From the IMG/VR virus record IMGVR_UViG_2554235189_000017, positions 1 to 38,614 of that record: a stretch of DNA of 38,614 nt; one strand, 5' to 3'. Position 1 is the stretch's first letter, and the number at the start of each line of letters is the position of its first letter. This DNA comes from a virus (taxonomy: Duplodnaviria > Heunggongvirae > Uroviricota > Caudoviricetes). Positions 1 to 22,512 of this stretch are shown here, one piece after another. The notes under the pieces were generated by a model. That model did no database searches, had not been told where the DNA came from, and worked only from the letters and a program-made list of their open reading frames with translations. Both the position numbers and the translations under genes were made by a program.

Positions 1-207
1 TTTACGCACACCGTATACCTGGTGATTTTCATCGTATACGCGCTGTATCTCTTTCTTCAGCCAGTCATCGTGCTGCGCACGGGCACTGCGTTTATCCGGA
101 TGATGTCGCTGTTGCTGACAATGGTAATACGTTGACGGGGCAATATGCAGTTCGCTGCATACCGGTCCGACCCCGTACTGCTCACGCAGCTTATCCAGCA
201 GTGGCAT
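1..207 (-). CDS. IS3-family transposase OrfB, N-terminal part (partial, continues past window start)
   Basis: ATG at 207-205 overlaps orfA stop; translation [23 protein letters not shown]... resembles IS3-family OrfB N-termini. Confidence 0.7.
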   Translation of the reverse strand, partial: MPLLDKLREQYGVGPVCSELHIAPSTYYHCQQQRHHPDKRSARAQHDDWLKKEIQRVYDENHQVYGVRK

Positions 208-533
208 TATTTTTTCCAGAGGCGGTCGAACTCCGCCTTCGCAAAATAAGCGGAAGCCTGGCGAAGGATATCGTTACTGCGGCGCAGTTCACGATTTTCA
301 CGTTCCAGCTCTTTCAGACGCTGACGTTCAGCGGTGGTGAGTCCACCATCACCACTCCCGGTATCCCGCTCATGCTGGCGAACCCAGACACGCAGAGTCT
401 CCGGCGTACAGCCAATCTTTGGGGCAATGGAACAAATTGCCGCCCACTGTGAGTCATATTCATCCTGACTTTCCAGAACCATACGAATCGCCCGCTGACG
501 GACTTCGGGGGAAAAACGAGTATTTTTAGTCAT
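207..533 (-). CDS. IS3-family transposase OrfA (HTH DNA-binding subunit)
   Basis: 108 aa [22 protein letters not shown]...[30 protein letters not shown], recalled as near-identical to IS629/IS3411 OrfA. Confidence 0.85.
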
Positions 534-558
534 CCTGTTTACCTCTTTCTCAGGGAGT

Positions 559-2988
559 TTAGTCTCCAGGATTTCCGGGGCGGTTCAGGTAGGTCTTACT
601 GCCGTTTCTCATGTCAGGAGCCTCATCATCTGGATCAGAAAAATTATACCCAAGAGTTAAATCATTAACCGTGGCATTATTCCCTGTTATTCCTTTGACT
701 TGATTAACACTTAACGGTATGTAATTAAACCCTGCAAAAAGCGGTGTTAACTTTTCTCTAAATAAAAGGCCTGGTGGGTATACTAACGAAGGTGTACCAT
801 CATATGTCACTGAGATAATATTAAGTCCCTTTTTAAGGGTTCCAATGCACGTTGTTTGTTTGCCTGTAAATGATGTTAGCCCATTGCTGGCAACTTTACC
901 TGATAGATAAGAAGAGTTCCTGATGTCATTGAGAATGACATTGAACTGGTTAACACGATCTGATGAAGTATAAGTTGGGTTATATGGCTCAAATAATGTT
1001 ACAGAGATATCGCTTGTATCACTCCATACAAAATACCGACAAATAACATTTTCATTTGAAGGCGTAATCCTTCCCCATCCACCAAGTGCATCAAGATAAT
1101 CACCTCCACTTAATATCGAAATTGATGGATAGTATCTGGTATTTGAAGGGTATCCAATACCAATAAATGAAAGTTGAGTAGTAGGGATTAGGTTCTTATT
1201 TTTTACAGCTGTATAAACGCGCTCTTTTAATACCTCTTTTGCAGCATAAGCACCGATGTAAGCATGCCCTATCGTTGATGGATGACTCTGATCAAAGACA
1301 GTTCCTCCATCACGCTTGGAAATATCAGAGATAGAATACGTACCAATGTCAGCATAAGCGTCAGTTGTGGCAACTGACAGATCCAGAAACTCAACTTTTT
1401 GAAAAAGACGCTCGATACGCTTCTTAATAGCTGCCTCCAGAAAAGCCTTTGGTGCATCATTATTGTTTACAGTAACAAAGCATATAGGACAACCATATCC
1501 CCATGATTTTCTAATCAACTTTTCAAATTCATGAAAATACGCTTCAAATCCTATTGTTGGAAGTATTCCATTGTCATTAAAACCAAGGCTTATAAAAAGA
1601 ACATCAGGAGCTTTTTTTCCATACGCAGCATTCTGGAAAAATCCATAGTCGAAGTTTTCATAACCCCAACCTGTGGCTAAAGCCTTTCCTGAAGAGGCAC
1701 AGTTGTATCCTTTAAAAATATTTGTTGTACTGTCAGATAGCATGTTCAGGCAATCAGTGAAGATCCTGAACCAGGAATACTTTCCGCCATTGAGGTTGTG
1801 GTTGTGGTTGGTTGAATTAAGATTACCATCGCTATCAGTTGGGTTCGGGGTCCATCCTGAACTATAGGCTCCATCCGTTATAGAATCACCAATGATACCT
1901 ACATGGCAATCTTCTATAGTTGATTGGTAACTCTGCTTATTTGCAAATTTAGCAATTGTTCCAAGAGCAGTAAAATCAGGGCCATTGTTAGATAGCCCAA
2001 CATCAAAAACATGCTCATTACCCCATTTGTCTCTTGTGAGAATTTTACCTTCTCCAAGAAATTTAGTCACATCATCTGACGGTAAAAAATTACACCTGAT
2101 GGTTACATCTTTTGGGATGTAAATCTGACCGGGGAAAGCATAAATTGCACTTCTGTTGTCAGTTGTCGTGTTAATAACGACATTTGGAACATAAAATATT
2201 GACGTTGCGTCAGTTCTATATTGTCCGTTAACAAGCTCAGATCTGAGAACCGCATCCCCAACACCTCTCCAAGCGCCAGGGCCGACACCACCAGCAGTGG
2301 TAGGAGTTGATCCAGGCGGAACTACTTTGGGCAGTGGCCCGTCCCATCTGTAGTATTCGCCGTTGCTTTCCCAGAGAAGAACATCGTTAAGATAGATGAG
2401 GGTATTACCCAACTCAAAAGATTTCTTCGTGTTATATCCATACAATCCATTTCCTAAGGTTTCAATAATGGTGCTAAGTAAGGAACTAAATTTTGCATAA
2501 AGATCATCAGTATATTTTTTTGTAGCAGCATCTTGAGGAAGAGATGGATCACGAAGGTTTCTAATGTAATTTGAAAGCGCGTCATAAAAAATTGCTACGT
2601 CAGTTGGCTTTCTTAAAGCCAACTTATCATTTCTTAATGATTGTTGAATGAGCATTGTAAGTTTATCAAACGCATCCTCATGCACCTCAGCGAAGAACTT
2701 ACCCTGGTTGCGCAGATCGGTATCCTGCGTAACCGGTAGCTCTCTTGATATAGAAATCTGATAACCGTTAGCCAACGCCTTCGACAGAATTACATTGCCG
2801 CCGTTATACCCTCCAGCACCAGTGACTATGTAATCAGTATCAAGAATCAGCTCTGTGATGTTCTCGTTCAGGTCAACAACCTGCACTACTAAATCAGATT
2901 TCTGGAAAATCCTGAAGGTATAAGGGAATGCCGTTGTAACACCGTTACCGGTGTATTCGTTGTGGTCAACTTCGGTTGATACCGTCAT
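559..2988 (-). CDS. Tailspike/tail fiber with conserved N-terminal virion-attachment domain and central SGNH/GDSL hydrolase domain (putative O-antigen deacetylase); 3' end replaced by IS sequence
   Basis: 809 aa; N-terminus [17 protein letters not shown] resembles a conserved tail-fibre N-domain; GDSITDG esterase motif mid-protein; the last ~8 codons and the stop lie inside the IS inverted repeat. Confidence 0.75.
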
Positions 2989-3163: not shown

Positions 3164-3182
3164 ATTGCATGGAGAAGATAAG

Positions 3183-3440
3183 ATGCAGCGGTATCACTAT
3201 CCACTGGAAGACGGATTTACCGAAAGGATTCACACGCCGGGAGGCGTCAGGTCACTGGTGGAGGGATCGCACTTGATGAAATTACTCCGGGATCTCGATA
3301 AGGATGGATTTAATGTCGATGGCCCACTTGCCGAACTGACTGCACTGATTAACTACGTCACCAGCTCACAGATGACTATGCAGGATCTGCAAACACATCT
3401 CGACTATTGTGCCGAACAATTACGAAAACAAACCAGATAA
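3183..3440 (+). CDS. Small SOS-regulated antirepressor-like protein (Tum-like), 85 aa
   Basis: GGAG RBS 8 nt upstream; LexA box immediately upstream; sequence LMKLLRDLDKDGFNVDGPLAELT...DLQTH aligns with the C-terminus of the downstream Bro-N antirepressor (LMNLLNQLQEDGHDVSGAAAELT...DIQTH). Confidence 0.6.
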   Translation: MQRYHYPLEDGFTERIHTPGGVRSLVEGSHLMKLLRDLDKDGFNVDGPLAELTALINYVTSSQMTMQDLQTHLDYCAEQLRKQTR

Positions 3441-3600: not shown

Positions 3601-3755
3601 TGCGTTAAGCACAGCCATATCCGAATTATGGTGGGCTGGGCAGGGGTCCGAAAGGACGCCGGTACCACTTAGGCCGGTACGCCAACCTTGTCCAGTTCAC
3701 CACCAGTAATTGGCGTTGCGGTGGTGATTAAAATCACTAAGTGGAGATAACCACC

Positions 3756-4466
3756 ATGGCTAATGCTCAAACTGCCATCTTCAAATTTGAATCTGTTAAC
3801 CCTATCCGTTCCATCATTATCGATGGCCAACCATGGTTTGTAGCCCAAGACGTTTGTAGTGCGCTGCGTATCCAAAACGTCACCCAATCACTTGAAAAAC
3901 TGGATGATGATGAAAGGTCTATGTTCAACATAGGGCATGAACATCGTGCAATTTTTGATAGCCGAGTAAAAGAGATCAACATCATCTCCGAGTCAGGCCT
4001 CTACACACTGATCCTCCGCTGCCGCGATGCGGTGACACCAGGCACTATCCCCTACCGCTTTCGTAAATGGGTTACAGGTGAGGTTCTTCCTCAGATCCGC
4101 CGCACCGGAAGTTACATTAAAAACTCGCTCCCGCAGGAAGAACGCATAAAGATGGTTGCCGACCAGGTAGCCAACGCCACAGCATCAGCAGTGATGCAGG
4201 CAATGAAGATAGAGAACAAAACCTACAGTGCCCCACTGAAGCCCGGCTACCGTAGCCTGATTCATTCGCCGTCTGGTGTTCTCGGCCTGACTGAGAACTC
4301 ACTGCTGATGAATCTGCTGAACCAGTTACAGGAAGACGGGCATGATGTATCGGGCGCAGCGGCGGAGCTGACCACCATGTTCTGCTACATCGTCGGTGTG
4401 AGCAAATGCCTGCGTGATATCCAGACGCACGCGGAGTACATCAACGACAAGGCAGGGTTCTTCTGA
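3756..4466 (+). CDS. Phage antirepressor, Bro-N/AntA-like N-terminal domain with antirepressor C-terminal domain
   Basis: GGAGA RBS then ATG 3756; N-terminus AIFKFESVNPIRSIIIDGQPWFVAQDVCSAL is Bro-N-like. Confidence 0.75.
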   Translation: MANAQTAIFKFESVNPIRSIIIDGQPWFVAQDVCSALRIQNVTQSLEKLDDDERSMFNIGHEHRAIFDSRVKEINIISESGLYTLILRCRDAVTPGTIPYRFRKWVTGEVLPQIRRTGSYIKNSLPQEERIKMVADQVANATASAVMQAMKIENKTYSAPLKPGYRSLIHSPSGVLGLTENSLLMNLLNQLQEDGHDVSGAAAELTTMFCYIVGVSKCLRDIQTHAEYINDKAGFF

Positions 4467-10312: not shown

Positions 10313-12822
10313 TGCGGAATATCTCCGGAGAATCTCTGACGCTTCTGTGTCAGATTAAGAACAACGGGAGAACCATCATCTTTCAGTAGATAACCAGTAC
10401 CAAGTTTCACCAGGTACTGACTATCGCCGTAACTTTGCAAACCATACTGACCAGGCGGTGTTTTTATCCCGGAGCCGACAACTTGTTCATTCCAAGCCTG
10501 ATTAACCCGCTTATCGAATTGCTCTGCAGACATTCCCCACGGCAAAAGGACATTCCCCATTCCGTTATAGTCATGCACGCCACCTGTAGCTACGTTAACA
10601 GCCTGTTTCCAGACATCATTGTCAATTTCGCCTGATACCACGCCTTTTTTCGCCATCACACCAGCGTAATAATCCTTTGCGATCTCGTATGCCATTGATG
10701 CTCCCTGAGCGTCACCAGCAAATGCATCCTTCACCATGTCAGAAAACTCAAAGCGAAGATCAGCATCTTTAGGCATCGGAATACCTTTCGCGTCATCAGT
10801 ACCTTTACGAGCCGCCGCACCAGCAAGAATTGTCTGCGCTGCGGTTTCAGGAGACACGGAAACATCAGGATTAAACCAGTTTTTTTCTGCCAAAATACCA
10901 CCAGGCTTATCCATCAGTATCCCGGCAACGGCAGCAGATGGAGCGTTGGCACTGATCTGCTGTAGTGCTGACATATACACCTGCCCACCACCAGTGCTCT
11001 GCCTGATGGTATCGAGATATGCTGCCTGTTGGGAAACTGGCGCATCACGAAAGAAAACACCGATCTGATTGGCCTCGTCTTTGGAAAAGAACGTCAGTGG
11101 AGTGCCATATGACTTAGCAAGGTCACTGACCTGAGCGGCACGCAAGGCAACGCTCTGTCCAAAGTTATCCTTATTGCTCATGTCGATAGGCTTTGCCTGT
11201 CCGGCGGCAAGAGAGAACTGCACAGGATCCGATTGCCGCTGCTTTATCACCTGATTTGCAGCCGAAACAACGTTGTCATAAAGAGCTGCGCGTGCCGCAT
11301 ACCCCTCCCCTGTCTCACCAGTATCCGGGCGTAATTGCTCAACATATGCTGTAATGCTGCTTGTCGGCATATTGCGGAAAGAGCCTATATACTGTCCGGC
11401 GATCTGCGTATTTCTGAACTCGGTATATCGCAGGTTTCCTTCTCTGACGCCATAAGCTGCAATAAAATCAGCCTCACCAGGTGGGTTAGGAAATTCAACG
11501 CCACGCATATACGCAGCCGTCGCATCGCGAACCTGGCTGTCAATCATCGTTTTATATTCAGCCTGCTGCTGCCGACGAAGTTGATCCGCCTGTCGCATAA
11601 AACTTGCCTGCGCCTCAGGAGATGCCGCATCGAATGCTGCATTACCGGTATAGCGTTTAGTGTTGGTTGGAATTGTTGATAAACCAAGTGCTGCACTGAC
11701 ACCAGCAGTTAACTGCTGATCACTGTATGGCTGGCTACCGTTCTCATGATGGATAATGGCTGCACAAAGCGCCTTCAGGGTATCAGGATTAGATGCATCG
11801 AGAGGTTCATCAGCAGAAACGCCAAGTTGTTCGCACACTGCTTTGATATACGACATAGTGTCATTTTTATCAGTAGGCGGTGCCCAGCGATTAATTATCT
11901 CGCTGACGGTATCAATACCCTGCCTCTGATACGACATCAGGTTCCGCCCTAATGCACGAATCCCGTGTTCAGGTGTTTCGAATTTAGCAAATCGACCATC
12001 ATCACCGGTCTGGCCTACCCACGGATTAGTTTTGCTGTATTCGAGATTTCCTGGGTTATTGTTGCGTATGCCACGGGCACGCTCGGAAGAGTCACTATCT
12101 GCTACAGCACGGCGAGCTCCAGCAACAGTATCACTTAACTCGCCATTACTTTGGATGAATGCGGTCGCATTGTTTGCCGACCACTGGGACAATGCGGCAT
12201 CAGCAACCTTCTCTTTAAACTCGATTTTCTTGGCCTGTATTTGCTCGTCGCTCCAGCCATGCGCAATGCCGTAATCCTCAATTTGCTGGAAAGTTTGCTT
12301 ATTAGCCAATACGTATGCGGCGTTGTCGCCATACAATGCTGCGGCATTTTTACCATTGTTCAGCAGCGTCGCCTGAAACTGGCCTTCTTCGTAGGCATTT
12401 ATTTGCCCTATCTCGTGCCGCCCGGCCTGCGTAGTGAACTGAATACGCTGCTGCTGCGCCTGCTGCATGAAAGCATTACGAGCCTGTTCATCCGGCAGCG
12501 ACATAGCCAGTTGTTCGATCTGAGCATCAAACTGCTGCGTATACTCCTGACCTTTTCCAATAGCATTTTTCCCTTTCAGGTTAAGCAAACCTGTTTCAGG
12601 GTTATTCAGCAGATCGCTGCTTATCTGACTGAGGTTAAGAGATGCCTCCTGAGCCAGAGCGATATTGGCACGCTGTTTTGCCTGCCCCAAAACATCAATT
12701 GCCTCTGTCCCTGCCCGAACAAAAGCATCACCAATACCTTGCTGAGAAAACGTCTGCAAGCCTGCTGACTGAACTCCACGACTCTCAACCTGACGTCCGG
12801 ATACTGTTGGTACGACTGGCAT
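10309..12822 (-). CDS. Internal virion / ejection protein (~837 aa), possibly with an enzymatic domain (RNNNPGNL motif)
   Basis: Start placed at MPVVPT (AGGAG RBS; TAATG overlap with upstream stop) rather than the track's 12897. Confidence 0.55.
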   Translation of the reverse strand: MPVVPTVSGRQVESRGVQSAGLQTFSQQGIGDAFVRAGTEAIDVLGQAKQRANIALAQEASLNLSQISSDLLNNPETGLLNLKGKNAIGKGQEYTQQFDAQIEQLAMSLPDEQARNAFMQQAQQQRIQFTTQAGRHEIGQINAYEEGQFQATLLNNGKNAAALYGDNAAYVLANKQTFQQIEDYGIAHGWSDEQIQAKKIEFKEKVADAALSQWSANNATAFIQSNGELSDTVAGARRAVADSDSSERARGIRNNNPGNLEYSKTNPWVGQTGDDGRFAKFETPEHGIRALGRNLMSYQRQGIDTVSEIINRWAPPTDKNDTMSYIKAVCEQLGVSADEPLDASNPDTLKALCAAIIHHENGSQPYSDQQLTAGVSAALGLSTIPTNTKRYTGNAAFDAASPEAQASFMRQADQLRRQQQAEYKTMIDSQVRDATAAYMRGVEFPNPPGEADFIAAYGVREGNLRYTEFRNTQIAGQYIGSFRNMPTSSITAYVEQLRPDTGETGEGYAARAALYDNVVSAANQVIKQRQSDPVQFSLAAGQAKPIDMSNKDNFGQSVALRAAQVSDLAKSYGTPLTFFSKDEANQIGVFFRDAPVSQQAAYLDTIRQSTGGGQVYMSALQQISANAPSAAVAGILMDKPGGILAEKNWFNPDVSVSPETAAQTILAGAAARKGTDDAKGIPMPKDADLRFEFSDMVKDAFAGDAQGASMAYEIAKDYYAGVMAKKGVVSGEIDNDVWKQAVNVATGGVHDYNGMGNVLLPWGMSAEQFDKRVNQAWNEQVVGSGIKTPPGQYGLQSYGDSQYLVKLGTGYLLKDDGSPVVLNLTQKRQRFSGDIPQ

Positions 12823-13367
12823 TATAATCCTCCGGGTAATCTGGTTCCTGCTGCTGCCACGATTGGCGCAGGAGTGCTTTGAGTAAACGGACTCCACGTC
12901 CCACCAAACATCTGGTACGCACCGTATGCCTTCAGAGGCGCAGTGAGCAATGTTGTTGCTGCTCCCACATTCCCCTGTTTACGGGCTGAACTGGCTTCTG
13001 CTTTATAGTTGGCAGCCTGAACCTGATAACCGTAAGCTTCGCGTTGCGCGTTATTCACCGTCGTCAGCGAATCAAGAGCGCCAAACTGGGCAGTGTCGCC
13101 AAATATATCCAGCGCGTTACCTGTAGATAAATCAGAGCCGGTAGCCCCCATTGTCGCCGCCTGTGTACCAAGCCGCTGTCGGGTCTCTCTGCGCCGTTGC
13201 TCAGCTTCAGCGTTACCCCTGTTTATTGCATCATTTGCCTGAGCTGTGGCTATATCTGCGTTCGCTTCTGCAACCTTCGAGGCATACTTTCCCTGTTGGT
13301 ACTGGGTGTATGCCTGAATGCCACTCATGGCGAGCATTGCGCCACCAGCAATAACCGGATCGCACAT
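12822..13367 (-). CDS. Virion structural protein (181 aa)
   Basis: Coupled to flanking genes; Ala/Gln-rich helical protein. Confidence 0.5.
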   Translation of the reverse strand: MCDPVIAGGAMLAMSGIQAYTQYQQGKYASKVAEANADIATAQANDAINRGNAEAEQRRRETRQRLGTQAATMGATGSDLSTGNALDIFGDTAQFGALDSLTTVNNAQREAYGYQVQAANYKAEASSARKQGNVGAATTLLTAPLKAYGAYQMFGGTWSPFTQSTPAPIVAAAGTRLPGGL

Positions 13368-22435: not shown

Positions 22436-22512
22436 GTGGCATTAGCTCAGTTGGACAGAGCAACCGCCTTCTAAGCGGTTGGTCGCAGGTTCGAATCCTG
22501 CATGCCACGCCA
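22436..22512 (+). tRNA. tRNA-Arg (anticodon UCU), phage-encoded
   Basis: Hand-folded cloverleaf: acceptor GTGGCAT/ATGCCAC, D-arm GCTC...GAGC, anticodon loop CTTCTAA, T-arm GCAGG-TTCGAAT-CCTGC, encoded CCA. Confidence 0.85.

Follow-up and report, generated by a model that had tools for sequence, protein, structure and literature searches.

An apparent simple IS629/IS1203-type insertion within the tailspike gene of an epsilon15/phiV10-like prophage of Escherichia coli IMT8073

At the edge of the stretch of DNA analyzed here (hereafter, the window: 38,614 nucleotides, being the first 38.6 kb of contig ASXQ01000028.1 from assembly GCA_000414155.2, E. coli IMT8073, taken in reverse), a prophage tailspike gene runs into an insertion sequence (IS), which raises the question of whether the 3′ end of the gene has been replaced by the IS, as a first-pass annotation of this DNA had it, or has merely been moved out of the window, and what this would mean for the spike. 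The contig stops within the IS, and position 1 of the window thus lies inside the element. The IMT8073 genome is a draft assembly of 454 and short Illumina reads with a reported coverage of ~170x, whose contigs were ordered from paired-end scaffolds (PMC3731852), and, as contigs 28 and 29 are numbered consecutively within that order, their adjacency is supported (PMC3731852). The strain itself is a porcine atypical EPEC, not O157, and has been reported as O-non-typeable, Ont:H7 (PMC3731852); that such a host carries a prophage with an O-antigen-esterase-type spike may be mentioned in passing. Intact alleles for comparison were drawn from draft contigs, because megablast, at its sensitivity, detected the receptor-binding module of the spike in none of the complete E. 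coli genomes, its matches there being confined to the IS and the holin region; neither the same junction nor an intact 3′ half of the spike gene was found among them.

The window as a whole is, by its sequence, an epsilon15/phiV10-like temperate podovirus prophage. Its structural genes share ~97.5% identity with phages phiV10, HEMP4 and phiv142-3 at 83–87% coverage, its early region shares ~97% identity at 55–66% coverage, and PHROGs matches include an integrase (at the far end of the window), a terminase, a portal-type “head-tail adaptor”, a major head protein and a repressor-like regulator. The gene order is that of phiV10 and epsilon15, the tailspike being followed by the lysis cassette; what differs is the receptor-binding part of the spike (residues ~165–914), where a G7C-type esterase module has come in, and the presence of the IS in the spike gene. 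Two further features of the backbone deserve a mention in their own right: a tRNA-Arg gene (anticodon TCT; 22436–22512, plus strand), which the prophage carries where its portal and terminase regions meet and which has an annotated tRNA-Arg counterpart in the related O157 typing phages 9 and 10, and a 91-aa ORF of the pair at 3165–3440 and 3741–4466 (both plus strand), which by eye resembles the C-terminal part of the neighboring Ant-type anti-repressor (PHROG 130) and may be a partial duplication or the remnant of a second anti-repressor.

The tailspike ORF (559–2988, minus strand; WP_024215865.1) comprises 809 codons and a TAA stop, that is, 800 native codons, one hybrid codon and eight IS-encoded codons. 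Its residues 1–163 (2500–2988, minus strand) form an epsilon15/phiV10-type virion-attachment domain, with 82–88% aa identity to the tailspike N-termini of epsilon15, phiV10 and TL-2011b, while beyond these ~163 residues the protein is, by sequence similarity, a G7C gp63.1-type esterase spike: residues 191–744 align to PDB 4QNL (G7C gp63.1; phmmer, E 1.8e-102) at ~36% identity, and Pfam places Tail_spike_N at residues 185–245 and gp63.1 domain 3 at 267–330. An SGNH/GDSL esterase domain follows at residues 364–579 (1252–1899, minus strand), where the alignment covers the esterase domain of 4QNL, and is complete in the truncated product; its Pfam Lipase_GDSL matches are weak, just below the curated cut-offs, and the SGNH motifs G367-D368-S369, G469-N471-D472 and H569 are invariant, with D566 nearly so, across the 50 homologues aligned. 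Residues 611–743 (760–1158, minus strand) correspond to a first CBM-like domain (G7C_GBD, Pfam PF21988, E 1.3e-8), which is retained, and residues 744–800 (589–759, minus strand) to a segment that, in the AlphaFold model, connects it to the terminal domain. The order Tail_spike_N, gp63.1 domain 3, esterase and two CBM-like domains is found in the intact allele P0001, whereas the product encoded in the window lacks the last of the two CBM-like domains. The likeness to G7C gp63.1 has its limits, as the N-terminus of the latter is a gp66-binding domain rather than an epsilon15/phiV10-type anchor, and the terminal domain, which the IS cuts off here, resembles its G7C counterpart in fold only, sequence similarity being undetectable; O-antigen deacetylase activity, and the requirement of the spike for adsorption, were shown for G7C alone. 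The same esterase receptor-binding module was also seen (among P0005, P0012 and the Schulenburg locus L003) on a P22-type head-binding domain (PF09008) with 93% identity, on a T7-type tail-fibre N-terminus (PF03906), and in a Kagunavirus siphovirus spike with 53% identity, and one esterase module on several virion anchors is typical tailspike module shuffling.

Where, then, does the phage sequence stop? When the DNA is aligned with the intact allele, phage sequence gives way to IS sequence precisely between positions 588 and 587, the intact allele reading ...AAGACCTACC|AGTCTACAG... and the window ...AAGACCTACC|TGAACCGCC... at that point, so that codon 801 has become a hybrid (CAG Gln to CTG Leu). 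The first-pass annotation had an inverted repeat end at 587, and TGAACCGCCCCGG indeed lies at 575–587 (minus strand), as an IS629-type terminal repeat that occurs only once in the window. Its claim that the last ~8 codons and the stop are IS-encoded agrees with the alignment as well: the tail at 559–587 (minus strand) consists of two bases of codon 801, codons 802–809 (NRPGNPGD) and the TAA at 559–561, all of it IS sequence.

The element itself was called IS3-family at first pass, and the IS629-type inverted repeat, orfA and ALIL pseudoknot that it bears uphold this. Positions 1–587 (minus strand) hold the left 587 nt of an IS629/IS1203-type element, cut at position 1 by the contig end, the related copies being 1310 bp long. 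Read downward from 587, the minus strand gives TGAACCGCCCCGGAAATCCTGGAG..., the left terminal repeat of IS629/IS1203, the left inverted repeat region (IRL; 541–587, minus strand) beginning with TGAACCGCCCCGG at 587, while the right one, at the start of contig 29 (locus L020), terminates in ...CCGGGGCGGTTCA; the IRL and the reverse complement of this right end (L020 1–59) agree at 13/13 terminal nt and 22 of the first 25, and the repeats show the 5′-TG ... CA-3′ ends of the IS3 family. Inside these ends lie orfA (207–533, minus strand), a 108-aa helix-turn-helix transposase subunit (Pfam HTH_Tnp_1, E 2.9e-12), the ALIL pseudoknot that stimulates programmed −1 frameshifting between orfA and orfB (136–252, minus strand; Rfam RF01497, E 5e-32, with 120.3 bits where the gathering score is 50), and the transposase gene orfB as far as its 69th codon (1–207, minus strand; by translation), the remainder of which falls past the contig break. 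The orfB start, also called in L006 at 12782–12988, overlaps the orfA stop at 207, giving the two-ORF frameshift layout of IS3 elements, and the near-identical copies L001 and L002 are annotated as full IS3-family transposases. Under the ISfinder rule, more than 95% nucleotide identity to a named IS makes an element its isoform, and the 587 nt show nine differences (98.5% identity) to the IS629 that sits in abgT of E. coli O157:H7 Sakai and four (99.3% identity) to the copy in strain 2011C-4315; the element is an IS629/IS1203 isoform of the IS3 family. It points the same way as the tailspike gene.

Compared with IS629/IS1203 of E. coli O157:H7 and Shigella, the IMT8073 copy thus shares the TGAACCGCCCCGG ends, the orfA/orfB layout and the pseudoknot, and likewise the 3-bp target duplication (see below) and the tendency to sit in prophages, where 62% of the IS629 copies in O157 genomes are found (PMC3271280); what is new is the insertion site, codon 801 of the IMT8073 tailspike gene. 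The isoform behaves as usual for its family, and this is an ordinary IS insertion of a kind already known. Positions 588–612, into which BLAST matches to the O157 abgT copy extend, were considered as part of the IS and rejected, as they are contiguous in the intact allele; the matches run ~25 nt past the IS because the phage sequence upstream of it (597–611, minus strand), ATGAGAAACGGCAG...GACC, resembles the abgT flank ATGAGAAACTGCAG...GACC (L001 ~1503–1527). The two stretches lie at a similar distance from the IS end, which could be chance or a weak target preference.

What lies beyond the element can be read from the neighboring contig. An exact-sequence look-up of the ORF predicted to remain beyond the IS (M810–G914, 105 aa) retrieved WP_162776592.1, which is known from a single contig, ASXQ01000029.1, of the same assembly as the window. 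The first 480 nt of that contig begin with 59 nt of the IS right end (...CCCGGGGCGGTTCA), then ACC, then AGTCTACAGCAG..., the exact continuation of the tailspike gene from codon 801 to the native stop, so that the 345 bp of the gene beyond the IS are unchanged. The lysis cassette lies behind the stop, with two genes of the holin family, a GH19 endolysin gene and a spanin-like one; farther on are three small genes on the reverse strand, followed by a MASE1/EAL-domain gene, ppx and ppk, and the spacing of the genes matches that of intact loci. The triplet ACC, of which the intact allele has one copy, stands on either side of the IS in IMT8073 (left copy at 588–590, minus strand; right copy at L020 60–62), and therefore represents a 3-bp target-site duplication; the reference IS copies in Sakai and 2011C-4315 have 3-bp duplications too (AAA and GCT), and duplications of 3–4 bp have been reported for IS629 (PMC3271280). 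Joining the flanks without the IS and without one ACC reproduces the intact locus L011 with 0 mismatches over 12,400 + 3,723 nt. The event is, on this sequence comparison, a clean and evolutionarily very recent simple insertion with nothing deleted, and the matching duplication marks it as unrearranged. The statement that the IS replaces the 3′ end of the gene accordingly has to give way, since contig 29 carries the remaining 114 codons, displaced by ~1.3 kb, and the statement that the original C-terminus has probably been lost holds for the protein, which lacks 114 residues, but not for the DNA.

The length of the lost protein segment, for which an alignment with intact homologous tailspikes had been suggested, comes to 114 of 914 native residues: in BLASTP, the truncated product and P0001, an intact E. 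coli allele of 914 aa, share 100% identity from residue 1 to residue 800, precisely where the identity breaks off. In an alignment of 50 sequences (from Escherichia, Enterobacter, Citrobacter, Cedecea, Providencia, Proteus, Vibrio and others), the region corresponding to residues 801–914 is kept in 49/49 homologues, at about 104–114 residues (89 in one shorter sequence), their C-termini falling 0–7 residues from that of P0001, and the phage homologues extend past the cut as well, by ~119 aa in Schulenburg and ~130–140 aa in G7C and Pisces. In the AlphaFold model of P0001 (mean pLDDT 83, and above 90 in the C-terminal third), residues 745–800 hold three short strands, whereas ten strands lie between 802 and 913. 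As the terminal beta-sandwich begins at residue 802 of the model, the IS is predicted to remove one whole terminal domain of the lectin/CBM-like beta-sandwich type (residues 801–914), cutting almost exactly at the domain boundary and leaving the catalytic domain intact. A search of the protein database with the 114 residues returned divergent or partial fragments only, none of them from the source genome. Relic ORFs of 105 aa were noticed on other phage contigs (L015 5272–5610, L016 3983–4321, and also L017 and L018), where they follow an unrelated tailspike gene and acyltransferase genes. At the nucleotide level they are 73% identical to the final ~340 nt of the IMT8073 tailspike gene, and they start at about codon 807, which is consistent with a discrete terminal module; the terminal lectin-like module seems to persist, or to be exchanged, as a separate unit whose boundary adjoins the IS insertion point.

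What would such a cut do to the spike? Most likely the spike is defective or severely weakened, and a fair degree of confidence may be placed in this: the truncated protein, we infer, would trimerise or bind O-antigen poorly, and induced particles would be poorly infectious or non-infectious. The defect is likely because the domain is kept in all homologues examined and because gp38 of the Klebsiella phage KP32, whose lectin-domain deletions are the closest experimental analogue (a terminal lectin-like beta-sandwich lost from a trimeric receptor-binding protein), needs its terminal lectin-like domain for trimerisation, engineered phages likewise requiring it for full function (PMC13082707). 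The analogy is not perfect, as KP32 gp38 is a capsule depolymerase of another phage, and its deletion was engineered and clean, with no IS-made 9-residue tail. The suggestion in the first-pass annotation that adsorption may be inactivated and the prophage left defective is plausible on such an analogy.

The defect is not certain either, and a functionally mild insertion, with a spike that still trimerises, mounts on the virion and deacetylates the O-antigen, and a prophage that stays infectious, perhaps with reduced efficiency or an altered host range, is unlikely without being far-fetched. With the break so close to the edge of a domain, the 800 residues that are left could fold, and none of the catalytic SGNH motifs is missing; the body of the epsilon15 tailspike (gp20) folds without its C-terminal petal domain (bioRxiv 10.64898/2026.07.31.742079), and KP32 gp38 without the lectin domain retains enzymatic activity (PMC13082707). 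Besides the conservation of the terminal domain in every homologue examined and the requirement for its analogue in KP32, however, domain 6 of G7C gp63.1 is a component of the proposed LPS-binding valley, and the lysis genes may be expressed at a lower level with 1.3 kb of IS separating them from the spike gene. A variant of the mild reading, much less probable, is that the 800-residue spike, having been cut at a module boundary, might still assemble and work as an esterase that binds differently, which would alter host range or adsorption kinetics; the relics L015–L018, starting near the same codon, hint that terminal lectin modules are naturally exchanged at this boundary.

As for the lysis genes, a polar effect of the IS is possible, since the element sits between the spike gene and the lysis cassette in the orientation of the former. 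A 9-bp hairpin (AGCCCTTTA...TAAAGGGCT) followed by a T-run is nevertheless seen by eye directly after the native tailspike stop (L020 ~417–449), although the terminator scan did not flag it at L020 417–449, its loop being too long for the rules of the scan, and a promoter-like site lies upstream of the holin at L020 468–497. As the hairpin and T-run already follow the spike stop in the intact locus, the lysis genes may not depend on read-through from the spike gene.

All of the above presupposes that the junction is real. Could it be an assembly artefact, or the state of a culture subpopulation only, with the chromosomal tailspike gene really intact? A draft 454 and short-Illumina assembly whose contigs break in a repeat invites the suspicion, as does the restriction of the 809-aa form to the IMT8073 genome, but the two junctions, on neighboring contigs, were assembled independently of each other with exactly complementary break points, and together they display a perfect 3-bp target duplication, which a chimeric join would not yield; exact look-ups found no intact copy of the gene in the IMT8073 assembly, for which, as said, ~170x coverage is reported. 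This explanation is therefore considered very improbable. An insertion accompanied by a deletion of the 3′ end of the gene, perhaps along with downstream phage DNA, is a shade less probable still: the window, starting inside the IS, shows nothing past it, and in O157 IS629 is known to bring about deletions next to itself (PMC3271280), but contig 29 runs from the IS right end and ACC through codon 801 and the lysis cassette into host genes, with 0–2 mismatches to intact loci and the matching duplication in place. An insertion immediately past the native stop, which would leave the tailspike essentially full length, has next to no probability, as the allele that is identical over residues 1–800 continues for 114 more and all 49 homologues, from several genera, as well as the phage homologues, extend similarly instead of ending at the same position.

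The exact 914-aa protein is encoded on 21 contigs and the 809-aa form on one. In other E. coli assemblies, the tailspike gene was seen split at contig ends (cluster members P0148 + P0131 and P0141 + P0130), one assembly having pieces of 712 aa and 202 aa, which sum to 914, and another of 357 aa and 187 aa, which suggests further repeats or IS copies, or else plain assembly breaks, elsewhere in the gene.

The reading preferred here, a single IS629/IS1203 insertion at codon 801 that truncates the spike and leaves the downstream part of the gene and the lysis cassette unchanged, is held with high confidence. In this reading, one IS629/IS1203-type element inserted itself at codon 801 of the IMT8073 prophage's tailspike gene, which is 914 codons long when intact, duplicating the target triplet ACC and deleting nothing; we infer that exactly one full-length 1310-bp copy fills the gap between the two contigs, ~660 nt of its interior being missing from the assembly. 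Translation of the spike now runs 26 nt into the left end of the IS before stopping, giving a product of 800 native residues and a 9-residue junk tail (LNRPGNPGD). This product retains the virion anchor, the SGNH esterase domain and the first of the CBM-like domains, and lacks the beta-sandwich of residues 801–914, while the two holin-family genes, the GH19 endolysin and the spanin-like gene are unchanged on the far side of the IS. Precise excision of the element would restore the tailspike gene.

The main value of the finding lies in correct annotation: WP_024215865.1 (809 aa) and the 105-aa “hypothetical protein” WP_162776592.1 are the two halves of one IS-interrupted tailspike gene. It also adds one more probable case of IS629-type elements disabling prophages, and provides an esterase tailspike that has lost its terminal lectin domain in nature and is usable for probing the role of this domain. 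As for the IMT8073 prophage itself, it is complete in its DNA content, but probably crippled at adsorption.
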